DNA from: an uncultured Granulosicoccaceae bacterium
GTDB taxonomy: Bacteria > Pseudomonadota > Gammaproteobacteria > Granulosicoccales > Granulosicoccaceae
Assembly (NCBI GenBank): GCA_964390335.1
Contig: CAYMHU010000001.1
Span: 158,225-222,224 of the forward strand
Direction: 5' to 3'
Length of the DNA stretch: 64,000 nt
Shown here: positions 3,484 to 47,316 of the stretch, piece after piece
How positions within the stretch are numbered: the stretch's first letter is position 1
Layout of the letters: every line of letters starts with the position of its first letter
The notes under the pieces: generated by a model
What the model was told of the DNA's origin: nothing
What the model saw: the letters and a program-made list of their open reading frames with translations, nothing else
Databases searched by the model: none
Made by a program: the position numbers and the translations under genes

Positions 3484-3774
3484 GTCAATTATGAGCCAAC
3501 TTTTGGACCATTCTTGAGCCCCTCGAAACCCGAGCCGACGCTGGAATAAGTTGCCAATTCGCGGTACAATCCACCCTGCTAAAGATTGCAGAAAACTCAC
3601 CCACCTGGTGCAGCCGGAATCCCGGTTCAGTGCAATCTGCCAGACCACCTTCTTAGTGTAAGTAGGTTACAGGCGTAGTAATCGTTCGAGACACGCTACA
3701 TCAGATCGCTCAGACCTGATCGGCATACTGCCGGTAGTCCGCTTTTGCGGTTTGAAAATGATAGAGGCCTATAA

Positions 3775-4041
3775 GTGAAAAAAATGTTTGTTGGTGGCTT
3801 GCCGCTAGAATCTACAGAAGAAACCGTAACGCAACTATTTGGCGAATATGGCACGGTGCGCTCGATTAAATTAGCCGCTGACGTATTCAGTGGAAAATGC
3901 AAAGGATTTGGTTTTGTGGAAATGGAAGGCCACGAAGCACGGGCTGCCATTGCCGGACTCAACGGCAAAATTGTTGGCGATAAGTCGCTCAAAGTTCAAT
4001 TTGAAGAACCCCGTAAAGGTAAAGGCGGACGCCGACGATAA
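3775..4041 (+). CDS. Single-RRM RNA-binding protein
   Basis: RNP2 MFVGGLP, RNP1 KGFGFVEM, basic Gly/Arg tail; GTG start. Confidence 0.9.
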   Translation: MKKMFVGGLPLESTEETVTQLFGEYGTVRSIKLAADVFSGKCKGFGFVEMEGHEARAAIAGLNGKIVGDKSLKVQFEEPRKGKGGRRR

Positions 4042-7367: not shown

Positions 7368-8057
7368 GTGTTGGACGTTGATTGGTTAGCAGAAGCAATA
7401 TCGAACAACGCAGCATGGTGCGATGCCATAGCATCTTCCCACAACGTTCCCACCAGCTGGAATGAGTCGTATTGGATGAGTAAACATCCGATGCCGCGTT
7501 TCTACCCCAATATCATCACACTCAAAAGTGATACCGCAATCGATAATCAAATCGACATCATTAAACCTCAACTTCCATCAGGCTGGGGCATTAAAGACAG
7601 CTTTGCAGAGTTAGATTTACATAGCAATGGGTTCTCACCAGCATTCGATGCACATTGGTATTGCCGAGTGCCAACAAATGGCATCATTGATAATTTTAAG
7701 CGGCAACACCATGTTCATACTGTAAAGACACAGCTTGAACTGAATCGCTGGGCGAGCGCATGGGGCGACGGCACTGATATTTTTAATGCTGCGTTATTGG
7801 AGAAGCAGTGCGTTGAACTGCTGTACATTGAGCACCACAACAATATAGTGGCTGGCTTGGCCATAAACCTCAGCGGTCATTCAGTCGGTATTTCCAATGC
7901 GTTTGGTTCGCCAAATGAATTGCTGAGCAGCGTTGCGTCAGTCATTGAAAAAAATCCAGACAAGGGCCTCGTTGGTTATGGTGATCAAACAGAGATGGCG
8001 CTGCTCAGTAAAATTGGATTCCGGAACATCGGTGATATGCGAGTGTGGGAAAGATGA
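7368..8057 (+). CDS. Hypothetical protein
   Basis: 229-aa ORF, GTG start, stop overlaps next ATG (ATGA). Confidence 0.6.
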   Translation: MLDVDWLAEAISNNAAWCDAIASSHNVPTSWNESYWMSKHPMPRFYPNIITLKSDTAIDNQIDIIKPQLPSGWGIKDSFAELDLHSNGFSPAFDAHWYCRVPTNGIIDNFKRQHHVHTVKTQLELNRWASAWGDGTDIFNAALLEKQCVELLYIEHHNNIVAGLAINLSGHSVGISNAFGSPNELLSSVASVIEKNPDKGLVGYGDQTEMALLSKIGFRNIGDMRVWER

Positions 8058-9008
8058 AAACTGACGTATCGGTAGCAGTTATTGGCGGTGGCATCGTTGG
8101 AGCATCATTGCTTTATTGGTTGGCCAAGTCGGGTGGGACAGACACAGTATTGCTGGAACGTCGCGAACTCACCTCCGGCTCAACCTGGCATGCAGCCGGT
8201 AACACCACGTATTTTGGCCCTTTTCCAAAAATGACATCGCTGTTTGCAGGATCAATACGCACCTACTTACAGGCCGAACAAGAGTCTGGGCAGTCGGTCG
8301 GTTTTCACCAAACTGGCAGTCTGCGATTAGCGGCGACTGCCAGAGAATTAGAGCTGTTCCACACCTATGCTTCGCGCTACCAGGATCTTGGGATTCCGTA
8401 TCATATTCGCACCCCGGAAGAAGTGGCTGAGTTGCACCCGTTCGTTAACATTAAAGACATCCATGGTGCTGCCCATACGCCAACAGATGGCCATGTTGAT
8501 CCGACCGGTGCGACCACTGCGTTGGCAAAGGCAGCGCAAAGCTTGGGGGCTGAAATTAAACGTCATTGTCCTGTAAACGCAATCATCAAAAGTGGTGACA
8601 CATGGCTATTGGAGATGCCAGACGGGAGATTGACTGCGCAACATGTTGTCGTAGCCACCTCGTTCTGGGCTCGCGAAATGCTCGCACCACTGGGTCTGAA
8701 CGTGCCGGTTTATGCAACACAACATCATGAAATTATTACAGAGAACCTGTCTGAAATTGCCAAGCTCGACACCGAGTTACCGGCAATGCGTGATAGTTGG
8801 GTGTCGTGTAACGTTCGACAAGAGCAGTATTGGCACGGGTGGCGGATCAGCCGAGTTCCTTGCCAAATGGATTACTACTGGAAGCCCACCTCCTGAGCTT
8901 GATGCCATGCATGCTGATCGATTTGGTAACGCAATGGAGAGGGACGCAGCGTTGGATGCGATTAGGCAGGTCTATGCTCGCGGTTATCAATTGCCCGAAT
9001 CAATCTAG
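8054..9008 (+). pseudogene. FAD-dependent oxidoreductase (dimethylglycine/sarcosine dehydrogenase N-domain-like), internally deleted and frameshifted near 8826
   Basis: VAVIGGGIVG, ELTSGSTWHAAG, HTPTDGHVDP up to VRQEQ; C-terminal SIGTGGGSAEFLAKWITTG..DRF continues in another frame; the GPI/TPDG region is absent. Confidence 0.75.
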
Positions 9009-23507: not shown

Positions 23508-24920
23508 ATGTTGTCTGCACATGATGTACTACAAGCGATTGAAGATAACGAAGTCAGGTTCGTTGATTTCCGATTCACCGATCCGCGCGGCAAAGAAATG
23601 CATTTCTCGATGCCTGCCAGCCAGGTGGACGAAGGTACATTTGAGGAAGGCAATATGTTTGACGGCTCTTCAATTGATGGCTGGAAGGGCATTAATACAT
23701 CGGACATGATCATGATGCCCGACGTATCAACCGCGGTGCTCGACCCCTTCATGGAAGAGCGAACCTTGAACGTTCGTTGCGATATTGTTGAGCCGGATAC
23801 CATGCAAGGGTACCAGCGCGATCCACGCACTATTGCGAAACGTGCCGAAGCTTACTTGCAGCAAACCGGCATTGCCGATCAAGCCTTCTTTGGCCCGGAA
23901 CCAGAGTTTTTCATTTTCGACAACGTTCGGTGGAAAACCGATATGAGCGGCATGAGCTACGCCATCAACTCGGACGAAGCCAGCTGGAACTCAAACGCTA
24001 AAATGGATGGTGGCAACATTGGTCACCGTCCTGGAGTGAAAGGCGGCTACTTTCCAGTGCCACCCGTTGATTCTCTGGCTGATTTGCGCGCCACCATGTG
24101 TTTACTCCTGGAACAAATGGGTGTTGAAGTTGAAGTGCATCATCATGAAGTGGCAACGGCAGGTCAGTGCGAAATCGGCACTAAATACGATACGCTGGTT
24201 AAGCGTGCTGATAGCGTGCAAACCCTTAAATACGTGGTGCATAACGTTGCGCACCAGTATGGTCGTACCGCGACGTTTATGCCTAAACCCATCGTGGGTG
24301 ACAACGGCAGTGGTATGCACGTGCACCAATCGTTGTTTAAAGGTGGCGAGAACCTGTTCGCTGGCGATCACTACGGTGGTTTGTCTGAAACTGCGTTGTT
24401 CTATATTGGCGGTGTTATCAAACACGCACATGCAATCAATGCATTCTCCAACGCCTCCACTAACAGCTACAAGCGGTTGGTTCCGGGATTTGAAGCGCCC
24501 GTTATGCTTGCCTACTCTGCACGCAACCGTTCGGCATCCGTGCGAATTCCATGGGTTTCAAGCCAAAAAGCACGTCGAATTGAAGTGCGTTTCCCTGACC
24601 CAACAGGCAACCCATACTTCACGTTTTCTGCATTAATGATGGCGGGCCTTGATGGTATTAAAAACAAAATCCACCCAGGTGGTGCAATAGATAAAGACCT
24701 GTATAACCTACCTCCCGAAGAAGATGCAATGATTCCTAAGGTGGCTAGCTCGCTTGACCAAGCACTGGAAGGATTGAATAACGATCGAGAATTTTTAACT
24801 GCCGGTGGTGTGTTCACCAATGAACAGATAGATGCGTATATTGAACTGAAGATGGAAGAAGTGACTCGCTTGCGCATGTCGACTCATCCGGTTGAGTTTG
24901 ATATGTATTATTCGCTATAA
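23508..24920 (+). CDS. glnA: Glutamine synthetase type I (adenylylatable GSI-beta)
   Basis: [36 protein letters not shown], retained DLY adenylylation tyrosine. Confidence 0.97.
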
Positions 24921-24946
24921 CTGAGCCGTGTTAACCATGTAATCGC

Positions 24947-25891
24947 TTAAAACTCCTTAAGCACCCTAATCAACGCGGCAGCCGATTCTGGCCGATCAGC
25001 AGAGTTCTTACTAAGGCACTGCATAGCAAGAGCCTCAAGAATCTTTGGCACCGCGGCATCAGTAACGTCCGATGGTTTTGGTGGTACATCGTGCAACGTG
25101 CTTTGTATAACTTCATCAATCATTTCTCCCATAATCGGGGTACGGCCAGTAAGCGCTTCGTATAACAACACACCCAGACCATAGATATCTGAGCGAAAGT
25201 CGATATCCGGCGCCCGCTCAATTTGTTCAGGCGACATGTACAGCACAGTACCTTGCAACTTCTGGTAGCCCGTGATGCTGATATGCTCTTCACTGTTTTG
25301 CGCATCACTTTCATCGAGCTGATCCTGCTTGCCGTCCTTGTCCCAGACTTTGGCCAAGCCCCAGTCAAGCAGTAGCACTTCACCGTATGCACCGATGAGT
25401 ACGTTTTCCGGTTTGATATCACGATGCAGTACACCCATGGAGTGCGCGTACTCAAGTGCATAAGCCACCTGAATAATAATATTGACGAGCTGACTCAGAT
25501 CGTAGCGCTCGCGGTAATCAAAAATTTCACGCAAGGTATAGCCATGCACCAACTTCATCGTGAAGTAGTAGTGACCCTTTTTATTACGACCCAGCTCATA
25601 AGTGGGCACAGTGTTGGGGTGTTGCAACATGGCCGACACTCTGGCCTCACGCAGTAGACGTGTTTGCTCTACATCATCATCAGCAAACTCAGGCAACAAT
25701 GACTTGTAACAAATGACCCGGTTGAGGTGCAGATCCTTGCAAGATTGAATCAGCGATTTACCACCGCGCGCAATCGTCTTGAAATATGCATACCGGAAAT
25801 TAGGATCGGGTTTCTGCGCCAGTTCCTTATCGGTTTGCTCCAGCAACAACGGTTGTTTTTCGGGTAATTTCAGTTTCGGATATTCGCTCAT
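24947..25891 (-). CDS. Stand-alone Hanks-type Ser/Thr protein kinase
   Basis: IARGGKS loop, catalytic Lys (YKSL), REARV, HRDIKPEN, DWG, GTVLYMSPEQ; no TM or sensor domain. Confidence 0.9.
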   Translation of the reverse strand: MSEYPKLKLPEKQPLLLEQTDKELAQKPDPNFRYAYFKTIARGGKSLIQSCKDLHLNRVICYKSLLPEFADDDVEQTRLLREARVSAMLQHPNTVPTYELGRNKKGHYYFTMKLVHGYTLREIFDYRERYDLSQLVNIIIQVAYALEYAHSMGVLHRDIKPENVLIGAYGEVLLLDWGLAKVWDKDGKQDQLDESDAQNSEEHISITGYQKLQGTVLYMSPEQIERAPDIDFRSDIYGLGVLLYEALTGRTPIMGEMIDEVIQSTLHDVPPKPSDVTDAAVPKILEALAMQCLSKNSADRPESAAALIRVLKEF

Positions 25892-25968
25892 TTCAGCTAC
25901 CGATAACGGACTCTAACGAATCATAACTTCAGTATATTCCAGCCAGACGCCTAGCGTGCAACGGTATT

Positions 25969-26017
25969 ATCACCAAATTCTTGCATCATAAGGGATCGAA
26001 CGCACTCATAAGGTGCG
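25969..26017. promoter_or_regulatory. Tandem NtrC-like binding sites between kinase and glnII
   Basis: ATCACCAAATTCTTGCA (25969) and CGCACTCATAAGGTGCG (26001), 32 bp apart; consensus TGCACCA-N3-TGGTGCA. Confidence 0.5.
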
Positions 26018-26150
26018 TAAATTGACGCTAATTCTAGCCAATTCGGTCAATAGCCTTATGATTTTTGCTAAAGATACGCTTAATCCTTGAACAGGCCGTT
26101 GCGGATACTTTAGACTTGCAACCTTTGAAATTTGAGCTACGAGGATATCG

Positions 26151-27161
26151 ATGAAAAGCAAGTTGGAATACATCTGGCTGGACGGCTACGAGCCGACCCA
26201 AAGCCTTCGCAGTAAAACCATGGTGAGATCTAACTTCGGTGGCAAACTCGAAGAGTGCCCGATGTGGTCTTTCGATGGTAGCTCCACCGAACAAGCAGAA
26301 GGCGACGACTCAGACTGCTTACTTAAGCCTGTCGCAATCATTCCTGATCCTGACCGCAAGAACAGCTTCCTGGTCATGACTGAAGTACTGAACGCTGATG
26401 GTTCTCCACATGCATCAAATGGTCGTGCGACTATCGAAGAAGATGATGATGATTTCTGGTTCGGCTTCGAACAGGAATACTTCCTGATTAACACCGCCAC
26501 TAACTTACCTTTAGGATTTCCCGAGAATGGTTTTCCACGACCACAAGGTCCTTACTACTGTTCAGTCGGTGGCGCCAACGCTTTCGGCCGCGAGATCGTA
26601 GAAGAGCATCTGGATATGTGCCTGGAAGCAGGTTTAAATGTTGAAGGTATCAACGCCGAAGTAGCTGCAGGCCAGTGGGAATATCAGATCTTTGCAAAAG
26701 GCGCAAAGCAAGCTGGTGATGAAATCTGGCTGGCTCGTTACCTACTTGAACGTACCGCAGAAAAGTATGGCGTAGCCGTAGACTTACACCCTAAGCCACT
26801 TGGCGATACTGACTGGAACGGTTCAGGCATGCACGCTAACTTTTCAAATACTGCGATGCGTGAAGCTGGCGACGAATCCGTGTTCAACAAGATCTGTGAA
26901 GAATTCGGTAAAAACATTATGCGCCACATTAGCGTTTACGGTGCCGACAACGATCAGCGTTTGACTGGTAAGCACGAAACTCAGTCTATTGACCAGTTCA
27001 GCTATGGTGTATCAGATCGTGGTGCTTCTATCCGGATTCCGGTAGGCACTATTGAAGACGGTTGGAAAGGACGTCTAGAAGATCGTCGTCCTGCATCGAA
27101 TGCAGATCCTTATAAGGTTGCTGCTGCGATTATCAAGACAACAACTGAAGGATTGAGCTAA
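26151..27161 (+). CDS. glnII: Glutamine synthetase type II (eukaryote/rhizobia-like)
   Basis: EYIWLDG, WSFDGSSTEQA, QGPYYCSVG, GINAEVAAGQWEYQI, DWNGSGMH, RLTGKHET, EDRRPASNADPY. Confidence 0.92.
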   Translation: MKSKLEYIWLDGYEPTQSLRSKTMVRSNFGGKLEECPMWSFDGSSTEQAEGDDSDCLLKPVAIIPDPDRKNSFLVMTEVLNADGSPHASNGRATIEEDDDDFWFGFEQEYFLINTATNLPLGFPENGFPRPQGPYYCSVGGANAFGREIVEEHLDMCLEAGLNVEGINAEVAAGQWEYQIFAKGAKQAGDEIWLARYLLERTAEKYGVAVDLHPKPLGDTDWNGSGMHANFSNTAMREAGDESVFNKICEEFGKNIMRHISVYGADNDQRLTGKHETQSIDQFSYGVSDRGASIRIPVGTIEDGWKGRLEDRRPASNADPYKVAAAIIKTTTEGLS

Positions 27162-27262
27162 TCGTTCAGCCTCGAATGTAATGCAAACGAATTTGCATTA
27201 CAGCGTGTAACGTAGCTCATTCAAGCAGCCAACCAGCCACTGCTGGTTGGTGATGGTTGTCA

Positions 27263-27291
27263 CAAAAAGCCCTGTTTATCGGGGCTTTTTG
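27263..27291. terminator. Rho-independent (bidirectional-type) terminator after glnII
   Basis: CAAAAAGCCC-loop-GGGCTTTTTG. Confidence 0.75.
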
Positions 27292-27356
27292 CGTTATACA
27301 CCTAGTGAAAACCACATGTTTGGCCGATATACCTACCGAATACAGTGGTTTTAGAT

Positions 27357-28022
27357 ATGCCAAAGCAAGCATTTGCCAGTTTCAACTTAATCCGTAGCGC
27401 CCGCACCCAACTGGGTTCGCTGGCATTGTTGGGCTGCGCATACCTATTGATGGCAGCATCCCCTGTTGATGCCGGCATTTATAAATCAATCGGCCCCAAT
27501 GGCGAAATCATCTTTACAGATCAACCCTACGAAGCCACCGAAACAGTCAAAGATAAGGTCAGCACGCAAACCAGCAATAGCGAAGCGTTGGCTGCAAAGA
27601 ATCTGTCACCAGAGGCGCAAGACGCCTACGAGGTGGAAGACTGGAGCGTTCCAACCGAAGACGTTATTTCGCTAACCCCTGACCCAATAGCGCCTCCGGC
27701 TGCCGCCATGCCGTTTGAAGACGATGAACCTGAGGTAATACGTGTTAGCCGCGTTGATATTCTATCGCCGGTACACGATGCCATTTTTTCAAACCCCGAC
27801 GCCAAGTGGATTGAGTTTCAATCGTACCCAATGCCCATTAATGAAACCGGCTTAACAGCCGAACTGTGGATGAATAACCAGAAAGTCTCCAGCTCCAACA
27901 CGTTTATGTTGCGCATGCCGTCCCAGCCAGCTGGTTCGCATACCTTGCAGGTAAAGTTGGTTGATGCGGACGGGCGGTTGTTCATGCAATCAACAGCAAT
28001 TCAAGTACACACCACAAACTAA
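27357..28022 (+). CDS. DUF4124 domain exported protein
   Basis: Signal peptide then IYKSIGPNGEIIFTDQP; usual position between glnA and ntrB. Confidence 0.75.
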   Translation: MPKQAFASFNLIRSARTQLGSLALLGCAYLLMAASPVDAGIYKSIGPNGEIIFTDQPYEATETVKDKVSTQTSNSEALAAKNLSPEAQDAYEVEDWSVPTEDVISLTPDPIAPPAAAMPFEDDEPEVIRVSRVDILSPVHDAIFSNPDAKWIEFQSYPMPINETGLTAELWMNNQKVSSSNTFMLRMPSQPAGSHTLQVKLVDADGRLFMQSTAIQVHTTN

Positions 28023-28318
28023 ACCGGCTGGCCAGTAGGTCAACACGTTTTATTAACCGCAAGTCTTTTCTACTGCTTACAACTAATAGTTTGTACGACA
28101 AGTGGAAGCACTGATCTTGTCGGACCCGTTTATTTCGCTGAGTACCGTTCTTATGAAATTTTTACTTGGCGAAAAATACTGGAAGACAAAATTGTATCGC
28201 TCTGACTTACTCGGCTGATTACTGAGCTTGGGCGCTCGAGGCTGAGCGCTCTATCGACCTACCCCTATTTGTCCTCCGGACATTACCGCACTGCCCTCTG
28301 ACGACAAATGTCTCATTG

Positions 28319-28366
28319 CGCACTAATTTTGTGCATTTTTTTGCACCAATGCACTATCATGGTTCG
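28319..28366. promoter_or_regulatory. Tandem NtrC binding sites upstream of ntrB
   Basis: CGCACTAATTTTGTGCA (28319) and TGCACTATCATGGTTCG (28350), 31 bp apart. Confidence 0.65.
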
Positions 28367-28493
28367 ATTGTATTGGCAAAATCCAGCGCCACGCTCTGGC
28401 TATCTTATTGATTTTAATGTAGTTATGGTCTCTAAAAGCACGGATCTCATGCCAAACGAATAAGGTTCAAGATTTGCACCATGAGATATAGAG

Positions 28494-29561
28494 ATGAATA
28501 CGACTACTGAAATTACTGGCGAATTTGCATTGCTTGATCAGCTATCCACGGCTGTGCTGCTGCTCGACGACGCGCTGCGTATTGTGTACGTCAATGCGGC
28601 TGGTGAGCAGCTGCTGGGCGCCAGTGCGAGTCGCACCATTGGACGGCGATTGACTCAGGTTGTGACTTTGAGCGATGAGCTGCTCACGCGCATGCGCGAA
28701 TCGCTGGAGCATGGTCAACCGTTTACAGATCGTCGCGCAAGCTTTGAACCTCGCGGTCACGATCACAAACTGGTGGACTGCGCCATCACCCCTTACAGCA
28801 CGCAACGCTTAAGTCGCGGACTGCTAATTGAGATTGTTGCGATTGATCGACCACTGCGTATCGCTCGCGATGAAGCGATTTTGTCGCAGCAAGAGCATGC
28901 ACGTTCGTTGTTACGCGGGCTTGCTCATGAAGTTAAAAACCCATTAGGCGGACTACGTGGTGCAGCACAATTATTGGAGAAGCAATTAAGCGATCCCGAA
29001 TTACACGACTACACGTCCATCATTATTCGTGAAGCCGATCGTTTGCAGTCTTTGATAGATCGCATGCTGGGACCCAGCACAAAACCAAAGCACGAACAGG
29101 TCAACGTACATGAAGTATTAGAGCACGTACGAAAAATCACCTTAGTTGGAGCGCCAAGTGGTGTGAACATCACTTTCGACTATGACCCCAGTATTCCGGA
29201 GTTTCATAGCGATAGAGATCGACTGATCCAAGTACTTTTAAACATTGCCGGCAACGCCATTAACGCGATTGGACCAAAAGGCAATATCGTTTTCAAATCT
29301 CGCGTTATCAGTAGTTTTACGATTGGTTCTGAACGACACCCTCTTGTTGCCGCGTTAGAAATACGCGACGACGGCCCGGGCGTTCCGGAACATTTAATGG
29401 ATCAAATTTTCTATCCGATGGTATCGGGTACAGACATTGGCAGCGGGCTTGGACTATCCATAGCCCAAAACATCATGAATCAGCTTGGCGGTCTTATTGA
29501 ATGCCAAAGCGAACCGGGGAATACCGTATTCACGGTATTAACTCCGCTGGAGATAGTATGA
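28494..29561 (+). CDS. ntrB: Nitrogen regulation sensor kinase NtrB
   Basis: PAS, LAHEVKNPLGGLRGAAQLL, FDYDPSIP, DDGPG, GSGLGLSIAQ. Confidence 0.95.
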   Translation: MNTTTEITGEFALLDQLSTAVLLLDDALRIVYVNAAGEQLLGASASRTIGRRLTQVVTLSDELLTRMRESLEHGQPFTDRRASFEPRGHDHKLVDCAITPYSTQRLSRGLLIEIVAIDRPLRIARDEAILSQQEHARSLLRGLAHEVKNPLGGLRGAAQLLEKQLSDPELHDYTSIIIREADRLQSLIDRMLGPSTKPKHEQVNVHEVLEHVRKITLVGAPSGVNITFDYDPSIPEFHSDRDRLIQVLLNIAGNAINAIGPKGNIVFKSRVISSFTIGSERHPLVAALEIRDDGPGVPEHLMDQIFYPMVSGTDIGSGLGLSIAQNIMNQLGGLIECQSEPGNTVFTVLTPLEIV

Positions 29562-30970
29562 GCGGCGAATATATTTGGGTCATAGACGACGATCAGTCCA
29601 TTCGATGGGTACTGGAAAAAGCGTTGAAACAGGCTGATATGGAAGTATCAACCTTTGAAACAGCAGACGATGCGTTGCAGATGGTGCGTGACAATGCCAT
29701 TCCTCCCAACGCGATAATCAGCGACATTCGTATGCCGGGTTCTGACGGCTTATCACTGTTAAAACAGATTAAAAGTATTCATCCCGAGTTACCCGTGCTG
29801 ATCATGACAGCATTCTCTGATTTAGACAGCACCGTGTCTGCGTTTGAAGAAGGCGCGTTTGAATACATTCCAAAACCATTCGATGTTGATCAGGTTATTG
29901 AACGCACGCAACGCGCCTGTGAAGTATTGGCGGAAAAACAGAAAACGCCACCGCGTTCGGCTAAGGCAGATACCGATGAAGAGCAACACGATGAGCTGAT
30001 TGGTGATGCGCCGGCAATGCAGGAAGTGTTCAAAGCCATTGGCAGGCTTAGTAAATCAAAAATCACCGTTATGATTAACGGGGAATCCGGCACTGGTAAA
30101 GAACTGATTGCACAAGCCCTGCACCGCCACAGTCCACGTTCAAGTAAGCCTTTTGTTGCGCTGAATATGGCAGCCATTCCGCACGATTTAATGGAATCAG
30201 AATTATTTGGTCATGAAAAAGGGGCATTTACCGGCGCGCAGTCCATGCGCGTGGGTCGTTTCGAACAATCCGATGGTGGCACGCTATTCTTAGATGAAAT
30301 TGGTGATATGCCAGCCACCTTGCAAACCCGTTTGCTGCGAGTGCTTGCTGACGGACAATTTTATCGTGTTGGCGGTCATACCCCAATTAAAGTGGATGTG
30401 CGCATTATCGCAGCCACGCACCAAAACTTAGAAACGTTAGTTGACCAAAAGCTGTTTAGAGAAGATTTATTCCATCGTTTAAACGTGATTCGCATTGAGG
30501 CGCCACCACTGCGTGAACGGCGCGAAGATATTCCCATGCTGTTAAATCACTTTCTGGAAAAAGCGGCAACAGAGCTTAACGAAACAACAAAGAAGATGAC
30601 GCCAGAGTTTAAGGCTTATGTCACAGCTTTACCGTGGCCAGGCAATGTCCGCCAGCTACAAAATACCGCTCATTGGTTAACAGTCATGGCCAGCGGCAAC
30701 GATTTAAAAGTGGAAGACCTGCCGAAACACAATCAGGAACTGCCGATCGAGGTAGATTCTGACTGGGAAGCAAGTTTCCGGCAATGGGCTAATAAACAAT
30801 TGCACGATGGCGAAACCAATTTACTGTCTAAAGCCACGCCTGCGTTTGAGCGAATATTAATTCAAGTGGCGTTAAATAAAACCCAAGACAAGCGACAAGA
30901 AGCCGCACGACTTTTGGGTTGGGGTCGGAATACGTTGACGCGTAAAATTCGTGAATTGGAATTAGATTAG
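29558..30970 (+). CDS. ntrC: Nitrogen regulation response regulator NtrC
   Basis: REC (DDD, DIRMP), [46 protein letters not shown]. Confidence 0.96.
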
Positions 30971-32520: not shown

Positions 32521-32568
32521 ACGATGTTGGACGTACTAGTTGGATTTGCGCGAAGTAGAGAGCAAAAA

Positions 32569-32590
32569 AGGCCGATTTTGGCCAAGTGCT
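32569..32590 (+). repeat. Copy of cassette-boundary repeat next to RHH promoter
   Basis: A-GGCCGAT-TTTGGCCA-AGTGCT. Confidence 0.4.
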
Positions 32591-32594
32591 TCAA

Positions 32595-32624
32595 TTGACA
32601 CCCGGTATAACTTCGGTTATACCG
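32595..32624 (+). promoter_or_regulatory. Sigma70 promoter with inverted-repeat operator for RHH antitoxin
   Basis: TTGACA-17bp-TATACC, 6 nt to ATG; perfect IR CGGTATAAC-TTCG-GTTATACCG. Confidence 0.7.
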
Positions 32625-32629
32625 AACGC

Positions 32630-32848
32630 ATGAAAACGGCTATTTCAATACCAGACAAAATCTATGAAGCAGCGGAGAAAGCTGCGAAGCGTCTAGGTGT
32701 ATCTCGTAGCGAGTTTTACGTGAATGCTATCGAGGAATATCTTGGCAAAACGTCAGATGAAAATCTAACAGAAGAACTGAACAAGGTTCATTCCAATCCA
32801 AAGTCCCTACCCCAAAGCGAGCTTGACCGACAGGGAATCAGTGGTTAA
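32630..32848 (+). CDS. CopG/ribbon-helix-helix antitoxin (MazF partner type), C-terminus altered by deletion
   Basis: MKTAISIPDKIYEAAEKAAKRLGVSRSEFYVNAIEEYL. Confidence 0.8.
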   Translation: MKTAISIPDKIYEAAEKAAKRLGVSRSEFYVNAIEEYLGKTSDENLTEELNKVHSNPKSLPQSELDRQGISG

Positions 32849-32945
32849 TGTATCGCAGATAGTAACACTCATTAAATCTTTCCTTTCTGATAAAGCTGAA
32901 AAAATCAATCCATCGAAAATGAAAGATATTGAGGACGGACTGTGA
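32808..32945 (+). pseudogene. C-terminal remnant of PemK/MazF toxin
   Basis: Frame reads PKASLTDRESVVNVSQIVTLIKSFL..KMKDIEDGL*LPL; no N-terminal part; TGA at 32943. Confidence 0.7.
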
Positions 32946-33035
32946 CTGCCCTTGAACGAATTTATCTTTCGCTCAGTGCACACTACCACCAGTTTACGAA
33001 CCGGTCCGAAGCTCTTCTCCAGGAATTTTTAATTG

Positions 33036-33329
33036 TTATGCTGCAAAAAGTTCGATAAGAACTTCTGGCCTTTTCAAGGCGATAGTGATGAGCTTTTGTG
33101 CTGCAGCTGACGGTTTTCTTTCATTCTGTTCCCATTTTTGCAGAGTCCGCACGGAAACACCCAGTAGTGCCGAAAATTGAGCTTGTGACATATTCAAATT
33201 AACACGTGCAGCTACAATCTCAGACGTCGGCACAACATTACCACTAACACTTTTAATTTCTTTCGCTGCTGCCAATAGCTCAGCGGCCAAATCTCGATCT
33301 GCGTCTTCAATTCGGTTGTCTTTACTCAT
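33036..33329 (-). CDS. HTH (HigA/NadS-like) antitoxin
   Basis: ARVNLNMSQAQFSALLGVSVRTLQKWEQNERKPS. Confidence 0.85.
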   Translation of the reverse strand: MSKDNRIEDADRDLAAELLAAAKEIKSVSGNVVPTSEIVAARVNLNMSQAQFSALLGVSVRTLQKWEQNERKPSAAAQKLITIALKRPEVLIELFAA

Positions 33330-33634
33330 GTGACCAACACCTCTTTCAATTTCTTTAAATCACGCACTTTCATATTCTCTTTGACATTTTTCCCGTAGAT
33401 CGTCATTAAGTGCACGTAGTTTTCAATACCTGCGAAATAAATGACACGCACGCCACCACGTTTACCCCCACTTTTTGCCTGCCATCGAATTTTTCTTACG
33501 CCGCCTGAACCAGGAACAACTTCACCCGCTTTTGCATGGCAGGCAATCCAAGAAGCAAATTCTAGAAACTCTTCATCACTCCAATATCGAGATTTTTCTG
33601 CTTCAAATATGCTGGACTCGATAACGGTGTGCAT
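33326..33634 (-). CDS. RelE/HigB-2 family toxin
   Basis: GEVVPGSGGVRKIRW...GKRGGVRVIYF...IYGKNVKENM; toxin-first order. Confidence 0.85.
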   Translation of the reverse strand: MHTVIESSIFEAEKSRYWSDEEFLEFASWIACHAKAGEVVPGSGGVRKIRWQAKSGGKRGGVRVIYFAGIENYVHLMTIYGKNVKENMKVRDLKKLKEVLVT

Positions 33635-33640
33635 CAACAA

Positions 33641-33669
33641 AATATACCCCATTGGGGTACGCTGAGCAA
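33641..33669 (-). promoter_or_regulatory. Sigma70 promoter with palindromic operator for higBA-like operon
   Basis: TTGCTC-17bp-TATATT, 6 nt to ATG; IR TACCCCA-T-TGGGGTA (33645-33659). Confidence 0.65.
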
Positions 33670-33897: not shown

Positions 33898-34602
33898 CTA
33901 CTCGCGCAACACACCCGCACAATTAGCATGACCACTGGCCACATCCCATTGACCTTCACGTGTACAAGCATTTACATAAGAGCGGTGCACACGGAATCGC
34001 CCACTTTCAGGTTTGCCATCATCAAGCTTCATATCAAGTTGTGACAAAATGTTTACCGGGATATGATCGCCGGTGAAAAATTCGTGGGCTAGACCTTCCA
34101 CATCAGCCGCTTGTGCGCTGTAGCTTATTTTGTAATAACCATTGAACGGATTGCGGGGACACGTTTGTGGCCCGCATTCCATATCGGACGCGGTACCGGT
34201 TGCGTTTTGCGCACCATCAAAGTTGCCGGAGATAAGCCCTGCTAACGCTAACTGTTGCCAAACTGCCGCGCGCTCCTGGCCGCCGTCTATACGTCCATTG
34301 CCGTTGCCCTGCACTGCAGCATTATCTATTTGGGTGCGGGCGGATGCGAAGTCACCAGGGATAGAGCGGTAACGTTCCTGAAACGAAAACCATGCCGCAC
34401 GAATACCGGATACATCGGCGCTTAATGAACGGACGCGAGCACTATCGATAAGCGCCTGCCCCTTGAAAACCCCGCCCATTATTAAGCCAATAATAACGAG
34501 CACAATGGCGATTTCAACGAGTGTGAAGCCCGTTTGTGGCTTGCCAATCTGAGTGTTGCCCATCTTCTTTAACCCATCTAAGCGATTAGTGTGTCGTGAC
34601 AT
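33898..34602 (-). CDS. Prepilin-type N-terminal cleavage/methylation protein (type IV pilin-like)
   Basis: G|FTLVEIAIVLVIIGLIMGGV; AAGGAG RBS before ATG 34602; C-terminal Cys pair. Confidence 0.85.
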   Translation of the reverse strand: MSRHTNRLDGLKKMGNTQIGKPQTGFTLVEIAIVLVIIGLIMGGVFKGQALIDSARVRSLSADVSGIRAAWFSFQERYRSIPGDFASARTQIDNAAVQGNGNGRIDGGQERAAVWQQLALAGLISGNFDGAQNATGTASDMECGPQTCPRNPFNGYYKISYSAQAADVEGLAHEFFTGDHIPVNILSQLDMKLDDGKPESGRFRVHRSYVNACTREGQWDVASGHANCAGVLRE

Positions 34603-34741
34603 GCTCAATCTCCTTATTGAATGTCGGTGTGCTTTGCAGCAGATAGCGGCTAGTTTCCGTGATAGACACTAATTAATCAACAGTGAAAAAGTTCAGTGAT
34701 TAGTTTTTGATCGTGAACACTGTTGCGCTAGCCGGTACCCA

Positions 34742-40255: not shown

Positions 40256-40354
40256 GACGGTGTAATCGTTATATGGCTTGGTTACAACAATATAGCAATA
40301 AAGTGTTGCTTAGCGCCATAACGCAAGCGATACCGTGTGCTGTACCATCAGCGT

Positions 40355-43015
40355 ATGTCGACGATTCATCTGGAAAAACTGCTGAACCCAAAATCGATCG
40401 CGGTGGTTGGGGCCAGCGATCGGGACGGCTCGCCAGGCAAAGCCGTGGTACAGAGTATTATCGGCGGCGGCTATGCCGGACCACTCAGTTTCGTTAACCC
40501 ACGTTATAAAACCATCCTCGGCCAGGAATGCCTCAAAAGCATTAGTAAACTCACTGAGCCACCGGATTTACTGATTGTGTTGGTGCCGCAAAAAATTATC
40601 CGTAAAACACTGAGCCAAGCGGCGCACTTGGGTGTGCGTGTGGTCTTGGTGATGTCGAGCGTACGCGACAGCAAAGGTTTGCATCACTATGCACAAGAGC
40701 TGGGCATCAGGATGCTTGGTCCGTATTGCGCAGGTTTAATCAGACCACACATCAACCTCAATGCAACCTATTCCAATAATAAAATTGAGGTGGGCTCCTT
40801 AGCCATTGTTACTCAGTCGGCATCACTCGGTGCCGCCATCCTGGATTGGGCAGAACCTGTTGGTGTTGGGTTTTCCGCTGTGCTGTCAACGGGCGCCGAT
40901 ACCGACATCACCCTGCCCGACATTCTTGACCTGTTGGCAGAGGATCACCACACCCGGGCCATCATCATATATTTGGACCGGGTTAAACAAACGCGCGCAT
41001 TTTTAAGTGCCATCAGTGCTGCTGCGCGTGTAAAACCAGTGGTGTTAATGAAGTCAACGCAAGACGGTGCGCGCTACTGCGATCTCATAACGCGCACAGG
41101 ACAAGTTCTGTCAACTGAAGTGGTATTCGATGCCGCAATGCGCCGCGCAGGTGTGGTGCGCGTTAAAACGTTTTCGAATTTATTTTCGGCGGCCAAGATA
41201 CTGACTTCCGGTATTCGCATCAAAGGTAAACGCATAGCGATCATCAGCAACGGCGCGGCACCATCGATGTTAGCGTGCGAGCGAATTGCCACCAAAGGGT
41301 TTGATTTACCCGCTATCACCAACAACACGATAGCAAGTCTGCACAATCAACTTGGAAAAAAATGGACCGGACAGAATCCGATCGTATTGCGCAATGCCAA
41401 TGAGTTACCTTTACAGTACAAACAGGCACTGGCTACCATCCAAGCGTCGGGTGAATACGACGCCATTCTAGTGTTATTTGTACCCGATGCCCGAACCAAC
41501 CCCGAGGCTATTGCCAACGTTGTTATTGAGCAACACCCTGGCAGCACTCCCGTTTTAAACAGCTTTATGGGCGAAACCAGTGTACTGAGTAGTCGTGATT
41601 TGTTTGCTGACGCAAACATCCCGTGCTTTAGAACACCCGAAGCCGCTATCGATGCCGTGGACTTCTTGCATCGCTACTTATTAAGCCAGCAACAACTGTT
41701 GCAACTACCCAACCCGACATCACGGCATACACGCGCGGACTCGCACAGCGCCAAAGCATTAATCAGCAGCGAGCTTGAGCAAAACGCACGCGTATTGGGA
41801 CCACAAAAAACCCGCACATTGCTGGCTTTATTTGATATCGATGTGCTACCGGCACAGCGCGCTGAAAACGTTAGCGATGCAGTAAAATTTGCCAATAAAA
41901 TTGGCTATCCGGTAGCGATGAAACTGGTATCACCCAATATTCGATATAAAGCTGAAATTACCGGCACCAAACTTAATGTAGCGGATGAAACGGAGTTAAC
42001 AGAAACATTCAGCACCATACAATCTGAGTTAGCCACTAAACGACCCGAGGCTGAGTTCAGAGGCATTCTGATTGAAAGCATGTACACACAAAGCAACACT
42101 CGTGAACTCGCCATGAGTCTTACCCGGGACGCCACATTTGGCCCGGTTATCGGCGTCAGTATTGGTGGCGATCTATCATCGTTAATTCAAGAGCGCGCGG
42201 TACAACTCCCACCGTTAAATAATTTTTTAATCGATGGCATGTTGGCAACACCGGTTATCGCAAACTACCTGGGTAGCTTCCGACATCAAAAACCGGTTGA
42301 ACCCAGTAGCGCTGCACACGTGCTACGACGCTTATCAGAAATGGCGTGCGAGTTACCGGATGTGTATTCTGTGCATATAAACCCGCTAGTCGTCAGCCCA
42401 TCTGGTGCCGTTGCCATGGATGTGCAAGTGGTGATTGAACGCGCTCACACCGAGAAACGCTACAGCCATTTAGCCATTCATCCGTATCCGTGGCGCTGGA
42501 TTCGTCTCATTCAGCTCAAGCATGGCAAATCCATACAAATGCGGCCAATCAGACCGGAAGACGGTGAATCCATTAAAAAAATGGTCCAGAACATGTCGGC
42601 GGAATCCCGGTTTTTCAGATTTATGCATGCCATAAACGATCTGTCTCCGCAAATGGTTGCTCAATTCACCAAGCTCGATTACGACAGACAAATGGCTTTC
42701 GTGGCAGTTAGTCAAAGCGGTAAAGGCGATGTTGTGGGCGTGAGTCGTTACACCATGAGCACGGACCGACGCAGTGGCGAATTTGCTATTTCAGTCGCGG
42801 ATGATTGGCAAGGATTAGGGTTGGCCTCATCACTGATGAAACTCGTGATTGAACATGCAAGCACACAAGGGTTGGAGCAATTGTTTGGAGATGTGCTGAT
42901 GACAAATGCGCCCATGCGTGGATTAATGAACAGTCTTGGTTTTACTGGAAAGACCGACCCACACGATCGCGAGGTTATGCAATTTACGCTGGCGTTAACA
43001 AAGCCCGAATCTTAA
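40355..43015 (+). CDS. pat: Protein lysine acetyltransferase Pat (NDP-forming acyl-CoA ligase-like + GNAT)
   Basis: LLNPKSIAVVGAS, ATP-grasp GYPVAMK, C-terminal GNAT RPIRPED..RFFRF..DYDRQMAF..WQGLGLA. Confidence 0.85.
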   Translation: MSTIHLEKLLNPKSIAVVGASDRDGSPGKAVVQSIIGGGYAGPLSFVNPRYKTILGQECLKSISKLTEPPDLLIVLVPQKIIRKTLSQAAHLGVRVVLVMSSVRDSKGLHHYAQELGIRMLGPYCAGLIRPHINLNATYSNNKIEVGSLAIVTQSASLGAAILDWAEPVGVGFSAVLSTGADTDITLPDILDLLAEDHHTRAIIIYLDRVKQTRAFLSAISAAARVKPVVLMKSTQDGARYCDLITRTGQVLSTEVVFDAAMRRAGVVRVKTFSNLFSAAKILTSGIRIKGKRIAIISNGAAPSMLACERIATKGFDLPAITNNTIASLHNQLGKKWTGQNPIVLRNANELPLQYKQALATIQASGEYDAILVLFVPDARTNPEAIANVVIEQHPGSTPVLNSFMGETSVLSSRDLFADANIPCFRTPEAAIDAVDFLHRYLLSQQQLLQLPNPTSRHTRADSHSAKALISSELEQNARVLGPQKTRTLLALFDIDVLPAQRAENVSDAVKFANKIGYPVAMKLVSPNIRYKAEITGTKLNVADETELTETFSTIQSELATKRPEAEFRGILIESMYTQSNTRELAMSLTRDATFGPVIGVSIGGDLSSLIQERAVQLPPLNNFLIDGMLATPVIANYLGSFRHQKPVEPSSAAHVLRRLSEMACELPDVYSVHINPLVVSPSGAVAMDVQVVIERAHTEKRYSHLAIHPYPWRWIRLIQLKHGKSIQMRPIRPEDGESIKKMVQNMSAESRFFRFMHAINDLSPQMVAQFTKLDYDRQMAFVAVSQSGKGDVVGVSRYTMSTDRRSGEFAISVADDWQGLGLASSLMKLVIEHASTQGLEQLFGDVLMTNAPMRGLMNSLGFTGKTDPHDREVMQFTLALTKPES

Positions 43016-44040: not shown

Positions 44041-47000
44041 GTGAACATCCCGCCACGCGTTATCAGCTTTGACGACGTAATTGAGCTTTGCGGCTCAGTT
44101 GCAACTTCGCGAGGGCGCGTCTACAAAACCAGCAATGCGGTCATCGAACTGGATTGGATAGCCGATGCCAGTGTGCTGCAAAGCACGGTGCAAGGCAGCG
44201 AAGCCGAACCATACCAACAACGTATTCTTATCGCTCCGCACCGTCTGGATGGCGAGTGTACCTGCCCAGTGCACTACAACTGCAAACACGTAGCGGCGGC
44301 ATTACTCAGCTGGATAGATAAACAATCTGCATCCCCGTCAGCCGACGATCAAGCACTGCGTGCAGTCAATCGTTGGTTACAACGCCTGGTTGAACAAGGC
44401 AAAGTGGCCTCTCCTAGGCTTGAACACCATGAGCTTGGCGAACCACTGTTGTTTTATCAGTTAGATAGCAACTCAATCAGTCAAACTAAAACGGGCATAA
44501 CACTGGAGATACTACAAAGCCGGCTGCTTAAACGCGGCGGCTACGGCAAAGAAACACCGTATCGATATCATGGGCATTACCACCACCCGGAATGGGTGCT
44601 TCCAAGCGATCGTTCCATTCTGGAACTGGCCGTTGGTCGGCACAGCGATTTTAATTACCGCACCTTAACGATCGACGGAGACATCGGACATCTGCTGCTC
44701 GGAAAATTACTCAGCACCAATCGCTGCTATTGGGGTGACGATCGTGAAAAACCACTGCACGCTGGCGGCTCTAAAACGCTGAACTTCAATTGGCAGGCGT
44801 CAAACGATGACAACCTTAGCCTGCACGTTGAACTACCGGATATTGAAAACTGGCAACTGATCCCATCAGATCCACCATGGTACGTCGACACCGATACATT
44901 GGTGGCAGGTCAACTACAAGATGTGCCACCCACCAGCGTGCTGGTTAATTTAGTCAATGCACCTGCATTGCCTCAGGCACATGCACAGGCAGTCAGTAAC
45001 TACTTAGCCTCTCGCTTGCCTGATGCCAGCGTACCGTTACCCGTAGAGCCCAATTTTGTACGCGTAGAAGTCAAGCCCGAACCTTTATTGGTGCTGCAAT
45101 CACGCGAAGACAGCCCGGATATTCGCGACTTTTATGCATCCATCAGGTTTCGCTATGGCGACTACCTGCTGCCGTTTGATGGCATGGAAGCAGACGCAAC
45201 GCTCGAGGGTAAAACCAGCGATGGCAAACCGCTTATGCTTACCCGCGATCTCAGCACAGAAACCCGCTATGCCGTGGAATTTGGCAAGCGCTTTACCGAC
45301 TTTGAATCAGCTATTCAAAGCGACCCGACATTCTTTTCACGTGCCGACAGAAAACCGAAATCGCGCGACGTGCAAACCATTGCGCGCAATTGGCATAAGC
45401 TGCTGGCCGAGCGGCCAGAACTTATCGCAGAGGGTTGGAAAGTCCAATGCCGCGAACCGTTCGATCTCGACTTTAAATCCATTACCACCATCGAAGCCAC
45501 GCTAAGCGACAGCACATCCAGCTGGTTTGATATGGCGTTGCGCTTAACACACGAAAACCAAACGTTTGATCTGTTACCGCTGGTGGTTGAATGGTTGCAA
45601 TCCGATACCCGCGATCAATCCATCCTATTGCAATCAGAAAGCGGACAATGGTTGGAGGTAGCACCAGAAGTGTTTACCCCTGTAGCCGACATCCTGTTGG
45701 AATTGTTTGATGATCCAAGTCAAAGCGATAGCTTCCGATTACCACGCCAACGTGCAGGTACACTCGAAGAACTCGAGAAGCAATGGCATGGCACCGGATT
45801 ACACATCAATTGGAATGGAGCCGAAGACGCATTCGCCCTGGCAAAACAACTAGACAACTTTGAAGGTATAGAAAACCCGGAAATGCCACCAGCGCTTAAA
45901 GCCCGATTGCGTCCGTATCAATTGGACGGTGTTGGCTGGTTAAGTTTCCTAGCAGAATTTTCGTTTAACGGGATACTTGCCGATGACATGGGTCTCGGTA
46001 AAACACTGCAAACCTTAGCGCACCTGCTGCATGAGAAAACCATAGGTCGATTGAAGGGCACCACGCTTATTGTGGCACCCACCAGCTTGCTGGGTAACTG
46101 GTCTCGCGAAGCAGAACGTTTCACACCAACGCTTAAAACCCAGGTATGGCACGGCAGTGACAGAAAGTCGCATGGGCTCAACTTCGACGATGTCGATATT
46201 GTTGTAACAAGCTATGCGCTGGTCACGCGCGATATCGATATATTGCGTGAACAAAACTTCGGCTTTATTGTTTTAGACGAATCACAGGCTATTAAAAACC
46301 CTGGTGCTAAAGTCACACAAGCGCTTAAAACATTAACCATAAAGCGCAGATTATGCTTAACCGGTACACCACTTGAAAATCACTTAGGCGAACTGTGGTC
46401 GCAGTTTGATTTCCTGATGCCTGGGTTTCTTGGCACACGCAAACATTTTAATCGCTACTTCAGAAACCCAATTGAAACTCACAACAGCGCACAGCGTCAG
46501 GAACGCTTAGCGGCACTGATCAAACCGTTCTTATTGCGCCGCAGAAAAGAACAAGTGGCATCGGAGCTACCACCTAAAACCGAAATTATCCGCGAAGTGG
46601 CGCTGGACGGCGAACAAGCTCGCCTGTATGAAAGTATTCGCGTCACAATGGAACATCGGGTGCGGCAACTACTGGCCGAGCGCGGCTTGGCTCGCAGCCA
46701 CATTGAAATGCTGGATGCCTTGTTAAAGTTACGTCAAACCTGCTGTCATCCAAAATTAGTAAAACTGGACACCGCGCGCGGAATTGCTGAATCGGCTAAA
46801 ACTGATTTGTTGTTATCGATGTTGCAAGAGCTTATTGCAGAAGGTAAAAAAATTCTGTTGTTCTCGCAATTTACCGAAATGCTGGGGCTAATAGAAACAG
46901 AGCTTAATGCGGCGAACATTCCGTACGCCAAATTAACCGGACGCACCCGCAAACGCGATCAAGTTATCGATTCGTTCCAACATGGCGATATCCCCCTATT

Positions 47001-47316
47001 CTTAATCAGCCTGAAAGCCGGCGGTACCGGACTGAACTTAACTGCGGCAGACACCGTGATTCACTACGACCCTTGGTGGAATCCGGCCGTGGAAAATCAA
47101 GCCAGTGACCGCGCACACCGGATAGGCCAAACAAAACCGGTGTTTATCTACAAGTTAGTCGCCAGCAATACTGTGGAAGAAAAAATTCTGGCTATGCAGC
47201 AACACAAACAGCTACTGGCCGATCAAACACTTGATCAAAGCGAACAGACGGCTTTGCAGAATTTGAGCGCTGATGACATATTGAAGTTGTTTGAAGCGGA
47301 TACGGCGACTCAATAA
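44041..47316 (+). CDS. SWIM zinc finger + SNF2-family helicase
   Basis: CTCPVHYNCKH, LADDMGLGKT, LDESQAIKN, LTGTPLEN, SLKAGGTGLNLT, QASDRAHRIGQ. Confidence 0.93.
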   Translation: MNIPPRVISFDDVIELCGSVATSRGRVYKTSNAVIELDWIADASVLQSTVQGSEAEPYQQRILIAPHRLDGECTCPVHYNCKHVAAALLSWIDKQSASPSADDQALRAVNRWLQRLVEQGKVASPRLEHHELGEPLLFYQLDSNSISQTKTGITLEILQSRLLKRGGYGKETPYRYHGHYHHPEWVLPSDRSILELAVGRHSDFNYRTLTIDGDIGHLLLGKLLSTNRCYWGDDREKPLHAGGSKTLNFNWQASNDDNLSLHVELPDIENWQLIPSDPPWYVDTDTLVAGQLQDVPPTSVLVNLVNAPALPQAHAQAVSNYLASRLPDASVPLPVEPNFVRVEVKPEPLLVLQSREDSPDIRDFYASIRFRYGDYLLPFDGMEADATLEGKTSDGKPLMLTRDLSTETRYAVEFGKRFTDFESAIQSDPTFFSRADRKPKSRDVQTIARNWHKLLAERPELIAEGWKVQCREPFDLDFKSITTIEATLSDSTSSWFDMALRLTHENQTFDLLPLVVEWLQSDTRDQSILLQSESGQWLEVAPEVFTPVADILLELFDDPSQSDSFRLPRQRAGTLEELEKQWHGTGLHINWNGAEDAFALAKQLDNFEGIENPEMPPALKARLRPYQLDGVGWLSFLAEFSFNGILADDMGLGKTLQTLAHLLHEKTIGRLKGTTLIVAPTSLLGNWSREAERFTPTLKTQVWHGSDRKSHGLNFDDVDIVVTSYALVTRDIDILREQNFGFIVLDESQAIKNPGAKVTQALKTLTIKRRLCLTGTPLENHLGELWSQFDFLMPGFLGTRKHFNRYFRNPIETHNSAQRQERLAALIKPFLLRRRKEQVASELPPKTEIIREVALDGEQARLYESIRVTMEHRVRQLLAERGLARSHIEMLDALLKLRQTCCHPKLVKLDTARGIAESAKTDLLLSMLQELIAEGKKILLFSQFTEMLGLIETELNAANIPYAKLTGRTRKRDQVIDSFQHGDIPLFLISLKAGGTGLNLTAADTVIHYDPWWNPAVENQASDRAHRIGQTKPVFIYKLVASNTVEEKILAMQQHKQLLADQTLDQSEQTALQNLSADDILKLFEADTATQ

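Follow-up and report, generated by a model that had tools for sequence, protein, structure and literature searches.

Glutamine synthetase is the point at which ammonium enters biomass. Fast control of the type I enzyme (GSI) by adenylylation is textbook knowledge, and to our knowledge no fast control mechanism has been established for the bacterial type II enzyme (GSII). Here we describe a gene for a Hanks-type serine/threonine kinase that lies beside a GSII gene in a 64,000-nucleotide stretch of DNA (the “window”) from a seawater bacterium of the Granulosicoccaceae; near-identical DNA is present in seawater metagenomes. The two genes have stayed side by side through rearrangements in four phyla, at times together with a PP2C phosphatase gene, which makes the kinase a concrete candidate for a regulator of GSII.

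Several described systems resemble parts of this arrangement. In the GlnE–GSI system a dedicated enzyme modifies glutamine synthetase covalently and reversibly, adding a fast layer over transcriptional control by NtrBC; the role of the kinase described here is proposed to be comparable, and the GSI encoded in the window carries the GlnE target, Tyr399. The differences lie in the modification (AMP on tyrosine versus a proposed phosphate on serine or threonine), in the modifying enzymes, which are unrelated, and in the class of synthetase. Rhizobial glnII is transcribed under NtrC and sigma-54, and in R. leguminosarum it is divergent from the gene for GstI, an inhibitor that is a small protein blocking glnII translation. 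The window likewise has an apparently Ntr-controlled second synthetase with a putative dedicated regulator gene divergent beside it, but GstI is not a kinase, and the rhizobial GlnII clade is absent among the kinase-bearing loci in the matches listed.

Plant GS1 and GS2 belong to the same decameric GSII family and are regulated by serine phosphorylation with 14-3-3 binding, which alters activity or stability (PMC4515544). The plant kinases differ in being eukaryotic, calcium-dependent or -independent, and genetically unlinked to glutamine synthetase, and their effect is exerted via 14-3-3 proteins, a family missing from bacteria. For plant GSIIB an origin from the gammaproteobacterial GSIIB clade, its sister group, has been proposed (PMC2978018); the same study (Ghoshroy 2010) describes the enzyme from Gammaproteobacteria, Planctomycetes, Verrucomicrobia and Bacteroidetes and does not mention kinases. 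Bacterial GSII is abundant in the ocean, where GSI and GSII genes form adjacent pairs with nitrogen-related neighbors (Yooseph 2007, PMC1821046). The neighbors named there include PII, a histidine kinase and others but no serine/threonine kinase, the reason for the many GSIIs is called unclear, and a glnA–glnII linkage in Frankia is cited. The window shares with these marine pairs a GSI gene beside a GSII gene on one scaffold and nitrogen-regulation neighbors; partnership with a kinase and PP2C is the added element.

Among bacterial kinases, PrkC phosphorylates Bacillus subtilis GlnA in vitro, and PknG–GarA controls glutamate metabolism in actinobacteria (PMC6213207). The window kinase resembles kinases of the PknB/PrkC type in its fold, catalytic motifs, activation-loop threonine, PP2C partner in some loci and, as proposed, a target in glutamate/glutamine metabolism. 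It differs in lacking transmembrane, PASTA, TPR and rubredoxin segments, in having DWG for DFG, in having GSII, and not cell-wall genes or glnH/glnX, as its linked partner, and in the absence of a recurrent FHA adaptor.

A full-text literature search for GSII or glnII together with a kinase or PP2C found no paper on such a link among those searched, which is not proof of absence. The words “glutamine synthetase” are absent from the ocean kinome paper that accompanies PMC1821046, and a survey of planctomycete kinases mentions neither glutamine nor synteny. The kinase(–PP2C)–GSII link is thus what is new here, whereas marine gammaproteobacterial GSII and GSI–GSII adjacency were already published. 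An earlier reading of the window, made from the sequence only, had called GSII unusual in gammaproteobacteria. That was overstated, since the enzyme is abundant in the ocean and known from this class (PMC1821046, PMC2978018), and our scans returned at least 600 matches.

Conservation of the Gene Pair

Contigs were scanned four times, using one genome per species, with the following anchors: the window GSII, the GSII of a metagenome-assembled genome (MAG) labelled Arenicella (locus L022), the window kinase, and its planctomycete orthologue (L054). All locus counts given below are among the matches listed. A kinase gene adjoined GSII in 44 of 68 informative loci with the window GSII as anchor and in 25 of 67 with the L022 GSII. 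The sequence-only reading had proposed to check synteny between this kinase clade and glnII, and had taken kinase orthologues not linked to glnII elsewhere as what would speak against a module. The kinase-anchored scans gave the opposite result: GSII adjoined the kinase in 45 of 68 informative loci for the window kinase and in 53 of 70 for the planctomycete orthologue, with linkage across four phyla. In the window-kinase scan, adjacency varied with kinase identity, from 18/18 loci at 70% or above to 25/38 at 60–70% and 2/12 below 60%.

The first three scans yielded 95 unique paired loci. The genes are convergent in 27 of these, the kinase lies downstream on the same strand in 31 and upstream on the same strand in 29, and the remaining eight are divergent as in the window; gaps between the genes are mostly 100–600 bp. 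Such repeated rearrangement with adjacency kept argues for selection on the linkage. Pairs are present in Gammaproteobacteria (Granulosicoccaceae, Halieaceae, Pseudohongiellaceae, Thiodiazotropha, Oceanicoccus and Azotimanducaceae), in Planctomycetota (including the cultured Rubripirellula obstinata, Roseimaritima sediminicola, strain SH139 and Laterigemmans), in Verrucomicrobiota and in some Bacteroidota, with Opitutales, Puniceicoccaceae and Chitinophagaceae among the further carriers. Orthologous kinases therefore adjoin GSII in four phyla and four orientations, and on this comparative evidence the kinase(–phosphatase)–GSII module can be considered well supported, real and widely conserved.

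The best relatives of both window proteins are from Granulosicoccaceae MAGs (92–96% amino-acid identity among the matches listed). Relatives of the window GSII across distant phyla and archaea are 73–94% identical, those from many phyla in the scan with the window GSII as anchor being at 77–94%, again among the matches listed; this is compatible with lateral transfer, and a chromosome labelled Pirellulaceae bears a Granulosicoccaceae-like pair (L020/L103). Adjacency could on these grounds be a historical by-product, the two genes having been co-transferred between phyla while functionally unconnected. We consider this the least likely of the explanations and a highly improbable one: the kinases have diverged to 37–46% identity between phyla yet are still adjacent, a passive pair would be expected to separate and not to persist in all four orientations with PP2C inserted or absent, and the catalytic residues are kept in both genes. 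The Pirellulaceae-labelled chromosome (OZ247499.1, 7.8 Mb) has the pair in the tandem order of Granulosicoccaceae, its GSII being 88% and its kinase 66% identical to those of the window; either the genome is mislabelled or the pair was transferred as a unit.

Neighboring genes were clustered for the first 121 kinase-bearing loci. Only two neighbors recur widely, GSII in 84 loci and a PP2C phosphatase of ∼247 aa (Pfam PP2C_2, E = 2e-15) in 27. In Halieaceae, Pseudohongiellaceae, Oceanicoccus and loci labelled Arenicella, the PP2C gene either separates the two genes or flanks them. Kinase loci that lack GSII have unrelated housekeeping neighbors (nitroreductase, FAD oxidoreductase, chorismate lyase, ThiG). 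The genes glnA and ntrBC are frequent neighbors of the pair among gammaproteobacterial loci only. Outside that class glnA is seldom and ntrBC never beside the pair, and GSII is still adjacent; in many Granulosicoccaceae the order is glyQS–GSII–kinase and glnA is missing, as it is from the flanks of most planctomycete loci. The kinase and GSII, with or without PP2C, therefore make up the conserved core. The glnA–ntrBC frame, which the sequence-only reading had placed at the center, is common in gammaproteobacterial loci and falls outside this core.

Two side observations concern GSII elsewhere. In nine gammaproteobacterial loci (L058, L072, L169, L177, L179, L182, L183, L191 and L233) GSII is directly upstream of ntrB–ntrC, at ∼3001–4008 or 8001–9008 of the locus, with ntrB ∼350–650 bp downstream and no kinase nearby. 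GSII occupies the usual position of glnA in these loci and may have replaced GSI as the Ntr-linked synthetase. The kinase-linked GSIIs of planctomycetes (L267–L309 versus L237–L264) fall into two classes by similarity to the window enzyme: the first is at 78–83% and convergent with the kinase; the second, from Pirellulaceae isolates, is at 63–72% and mostly in tandem order, GSII before kinase. Other Rhodopirellula-type loci have the kinase or GSII alone. Two GSII paralogues per planctomycete genome are possible.

Sequence Analysis of the Kinase and Synthetase

The kinase gene (24947–25891, minus strand) encodes 314 aa comprising a single Pkinase domain (Pfam, E = 2e-41) and no other domain, and no hydrophobic segment could be read from the sequence. 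The closest solved structure is the kinase domain of Mycobacterium tuberculosis PknB (E = 4e-35). All residues that define a Hanks-type serine/threonine kinase are in place: K63 (β3), E82 (αC), H156-R157-D158, N163, and S220-P221-E222 as the APE-type motif. DWG (D176-W177-G178) replaces DFG. These catalytic motifs are invariant or nearly so among 25 aligned family members. T207 aligns with the threonine of the PknB SVTQT segment, the activation-loop phosphorylation site T171, and the activation-loop threonine is conserved in the family.

No NCBIfam model reached its cut-off for the kinase. The best match, to PknB_PASTA_kin, scored 221 bits versus a cut-off of 450 and covered positions 8–266 of 563; the protein stops right after the catalytic domain, at residue 314, and is thus not a PASTA receptor of the PknB/Stk1 kind. 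Database relatives are labelled merely “serine/threonine protein kinase”. Kinases of other phyla share a set of hallmarks in spite of their low identity to the window kinase, namely an N-terminal xTD, a GG[KST] loop, REARV..LQHPNT, HRD, DWG.AKVW, YMSPEQ, a length of ∼310 aa and no extra domain. By sequence, then, the kinase is a predicted stand-alone cytosolic Hanks-type enzyme without a transmembrane or sensor domain, and belongs to what appears to be an unnamed family of PknB-like proteins of ∼310 aa with DWG for DFG. A defence-system kinase was considered and rejected: models for MADS and BREX kinases scored far below their cut-offs, and the neighborhood is metabolic.

An AlphaFold2 model of the kinase has a folded core and a moderate overall pLDDT (predicted local distance difference test score) of 68.6. 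Residues 1–33 and 178–213 fall below a pLDDT of 50, and the N-terminus and activation loop are accordingly predicted to be disordered. The 33 N-terminal residues nonetheless carry an invariant motif, E18/T20/D21/L24, and this tail could be a docking site. Together with the absence of a sensor domain, which means that the kinase needs an input from elsewhere, the tail fits a scheme in which information flows in the reverse direction: GSII would serve as a metabolic sensor, or trigger enzyme, that would bind the kinase and govern it depending on whether GSII is in its substrate-bound or its feedback-inhibited state, and the kinase would relay nitrogen status onward to other targets. There is precedent in Gram-positive bacteria, where feedback-inhibited GSI controls GlnR (PMC9249791). 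We consider such a scheme improbable, as the GSII sequence is the same with or without a kinase.

The GSII gene (26151–27161, plus strand) encodes 336 aa, within the 330–370 aa range of the class. The protein covers positions 1–329 of the 333-position NCBIfam GlnII model with a score of 406 bits (the next best glutamine synthetase model scores only 65 bits). This lies under the 500-bit equivalog cut-off and therefore places the enzyme in a divergent clade, GSIIB. Both Pfam domains are found (Gln-synt_N, E = 2e-12; Gln-synt_C, E = 1e-22). The closest solved structure is 4BAX (E = 6e-101), which is named “glutamine synthetase” and which we take to be Streptomyces coelicolor GSII. Aligned with 4BAX are the motifs DGSST, FGFEQEY, NAEVAAGQWEYQ, GSGMHANFS, RLTGKHET, DRGASIRIP and EDRRPASN. 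All metal-, ATP-, glutamate- and ammonium-binding motifs are intact, and the enzyme is accordingly predicted to be catalytically competent. The adenylylation loop is missing, and GlnE therefore has no means of switching the enzyme off.

A run of residues preceding the FGFEQEY active-site strand, T94-I-E-E-D-D-D-D (residues 94–101; window 26432–26455), stands out in the alignment: T94 and the EEDDDD run are conserved throughout the GSII clade, and the aligned segment of 4BAX is AALAELSE. The run was considered as a kinase-linked acceptor signature and rejected, being conserved in linked and unlinked GSIIs alike.

Proposed Regulation of GSII

A conserved two-gene regulatory module in which the kinase phosphorylates GSII and PP2C reverses the modification is our favored interpretation, held tentatively and with a little less than even confidence. 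Under this proposal GSII would be a second glutamine synthetase under Ntr control, exerted by way of an NtrC-type box in the window and, in relatives, of either NtrC boxes or sigma-54 promoters. The small cytosolic kinase, which is of the RD type and probably activated by phosphorylation of T207 in the activation loop, would phosphorylate GSII and so change its activity or stability quickly on a shift in nitrogen supply; the phosphate would be removed by a PP2C phosphatase whose gene lies next to the pair or at another locus. Direct phosphorylation of GSII would be the simplest reading of a kinase that is kept beside GSII through rearrangements.

Several observations weigh against this proposal. 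Column-by-column comparison of 72 kinase-linked with 21 unlinked GSIIs revealed no residue that tells the two groups apart, so GSII has no dedicated acceptor-site signature. The genes also occur apart. In 64 GSII loci whose flanks both extend for at least 2.5 kb, no kinase is nearby; among them are those of Marinimicrobia, group II archaea, SAR202, most Bacteroidota and the gammaproteobacterial group with GSII directly before ntrBC. Conversely, 23 kinase loci have no adjacent GSII, including those of Porticoccaceae, where PP2C accompanies the kinase. (In MAG CBDHHF01 both genes are present, on separate contigs, L043 and L146.) In the window itself no phosphatase was found, and no RNA run was found that contains the window. 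The genes, the integrity of their catalytic motifs, the linkage across phyla and the Ntr-type sites upstream are observed; phosphorylation as such, GSII as its target, the way in which the enzyme would respond and the signal to the kinase are inferred. Thus the kinase–GSII module of the sequence-only reading has gained conserved linkage, and the phosphorylation-based control that it added has stayed at the level of a proposal.

Some of these observations would suit a kinase whose substrate lies elsewhere. The kinase, with or without PP2C, could signal nitrogen status to NtrB/NtrC, PII, GSI or a transcription factor, with GSII as no more than a co-regulated neighbor that belongs to one nitrogen regulon with it. 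Kinase loci without GSII, the Porticoccaceae kinase–PP2C loci in particular, would be expected, as would the lack of a kinase-specific residue in GSII. The pair often adjoins glnA–ntrBC in Gammaproteobacteria, the window kinase has glnA on one side and GSII on the other, with an NtrC-type box in common with the latter, and several substrates are common for bacterial Hanks kinases (PMC6213207). The neighbor survey nevertheless makes this explanation somewhat unlikely: beyond Gammaproteobacteria it is GSII that stays adjacent, besides GSII (and PP2C) no neighbor recurs widely with the kinase, and many Granulosicoccaceae pairs adjoin glyQS in loci without glnA.

Phosphorylation of GSII by its neighbor kinase, if confirmed, would add a serine/threonine-phosphorylation branch to bacterial nitrogen control and would connect the regulation of GSII in bacteria with the known phosphorylation of the plant enzymes. 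It is possible, although we put this forward with reserve, that the DWG-kinase family and PP2C form a dedicated post-translational switch of bacterial GSII and so a functional counterpart of GlnE. Such a switch would be widely distributed among Gammaproteobacteria, Planctomycetota and Verrucomicrobiota that are abundant in marine and fresh waters. Since plant GSIIB is proposed to have come from this GSII clade, control of GSII by phosphorylation would in that case have an ancient bacterial origin and not be a eukaryotic invention. Cultured planctomycetes that have the pair (Rubripirellula, Roseimaritima, SH139) make the candidate directly testable.

Upstream Regions and Transcription

The divergent kinase and GSII genes are separated by a control region of 259 bp (25892–26150). 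It contains an NtrC-type palindrome, CGCACTCATAAGGTGCG (core GCAC-N7-GTGC), at 26001–26017, which lies 135–149 nt ahead of the GSII ATG and ∼110 nt ahead of that of the kinase. Eight intergenic regions of the divergent type from Granulosicoccaceae were aligned. The exact core is found at the same offset (∼150 nt before the GSII start) in L001, L010, L013 and L081, and a one-mismatch version at the aligned place in L003, L004, L008 and L019. Two further blocks are conserved in this spacer among Granulosicoccaceae, CCTTGA (26086–26091) and ATACTTTA (26106–26113), and a GAGGA ribosome-binding site precedes the GSII start. Two NtrC-type boxes also lie upstream of ntrB, at 28319–28335 (CGCACTAATTTTGTGCA) and 28350–28366, the same GCAC-N7-GTGC core being at 28320–28334.

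Ntr-type sites are strongly enriched ahead of GSII. Among 174 unique GSII upstream regions, 50 contain the exact NtrC core (coding control, 0; shuffles, 0.85) and 24 a consensus sigma-54 promoter (0 and 0.15, respectively). The sigma-54 promoters are mostly in Planctomycetota, ∼200 nt upstream of GSII. In many lineages, then, GSII of this clade belongs to the Ntr regulon, as rhizobial glnII does. Note that, allowing up to three mismatches, no sigma-54 promoter with GG-N10-GC spacing was found upstream of GSII or glnA in the window.

Three strong hairpins directly follow GSII on the plus strand (27177–27202, 27228–27251 and 27263–27291). The region 27177–27291 has a minimum free energy of −59.4 kcal/mol and a z-score of −7.0 versus 200 shuffles. 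With an A-run and a U-run on its two sides, the last hairpin resembles a bidirectional terminator, so GSII is probably a single-gene transcription unit. Contigs of a ∼92% similar planctomycete relative from lake-water metatranscriptomes (runs X10–X13) span the kinase and GSII (L258:3900–6100). The two genes are convergent and the depth is even, which suggests that both are expressed in situ, with DNA carry-over possible.

Context Genes and Additional Observations

All genes named by the sequence-only reading were confirmed, at the positions it gave, by the list of open reading frames (ORFs) and by family scans of the window: a glnA gene for GSI with the adenylylation tyrosine, a sensor-less serine/threonine kinase gene on the opposite strand whose stop is 26 bp from that of glnA (coordinates and Pfam agree), a complete GSII gene divergent from the kinase, and DUF4124–ntrB–ntrC after GSII (family matches agree).

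The glnA gene (23508–24920, plus strand; 470 aa), a context gene outside the conserved core, scored 855 bits with PRK09469 of NCBIfam (cut-off 845) and 664 bits with TIGR00653 (cut-off 429). Tyr399 of its product lies within an NLYDLPPEE-type adenylylation loop. No glnE, GlnD or PII gene was seen among the window ORFs checked. The last base of the glnA stop is 24920, and that of the kinase occupies 24947–24949; no terminator-like hairpin was reported in the spacer between these convergent genes (24921–24946). Its length is not conserved, being ∼119 bp in L081, the closest relative found, which has the same gene order as the window.

The DUF4124 gene (27345–28022, plus strand; PF13511, E = 1e-6), likewise a context gene, encodes a protein with an N-terminal hydrophobic leader. 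In L081 a homologue adjoins GSII, and members of the family recur, in 17 loci altogether. Further downstream, ntrB (28494–29561, plus strand) encodes the PAS–HisKA–HATPase sensor kinase NRII (PRK11073, 349 bits; cut-off 240) and ntrC (29558–30970, plus strand) the sigma-54 activator NRI (TIGR01818, 693 bits; cut-off 559). Both matches are at equivalog level, and the genes are adjacent and overlapping. The mechanically called ntrC ORF begins at 29501, but family matches begin only at ORF residue 23–25; the true start is likely at 29558, where an ATG overlaps the stop of ntrB (translational coupling). On the 5′ side of glnA are glyQ, glyS, a gene for a HAD-family hydrolase and an acyltransferase gene, and beyond ntrC is a pirin gene.

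GC content is 46–49% across the kinase and GSII genes and does not differ from that of the flanks, therefore nothing marks a recent insertion, and a recently inserted island was rejected as an explanation of the locus. A second kinase was searched for in the window and none was found; an Rfam scan of the window found no RNA family.

Elsewhere in the window, a stretch of lower GC content (42–43%) at 32540–33652 encodes a ribbon-helix-helix protein (32540–32848) and a probable toxin–antitoxin pair, in which the gene for an HTH/MqsA-like antitoxin (33036–33329) overlaps that for a RelE-like toxin (33326–33652). Other genes encode a protein with a prepilin-type N-methylation motif (33898–34608), a Pat-type protein acetyltransferase of 892 aa with CoA-binding, ATP-grasp and GNAT domains (40337–43015), and a SNF2/RapA-like helicase (44041–47316).

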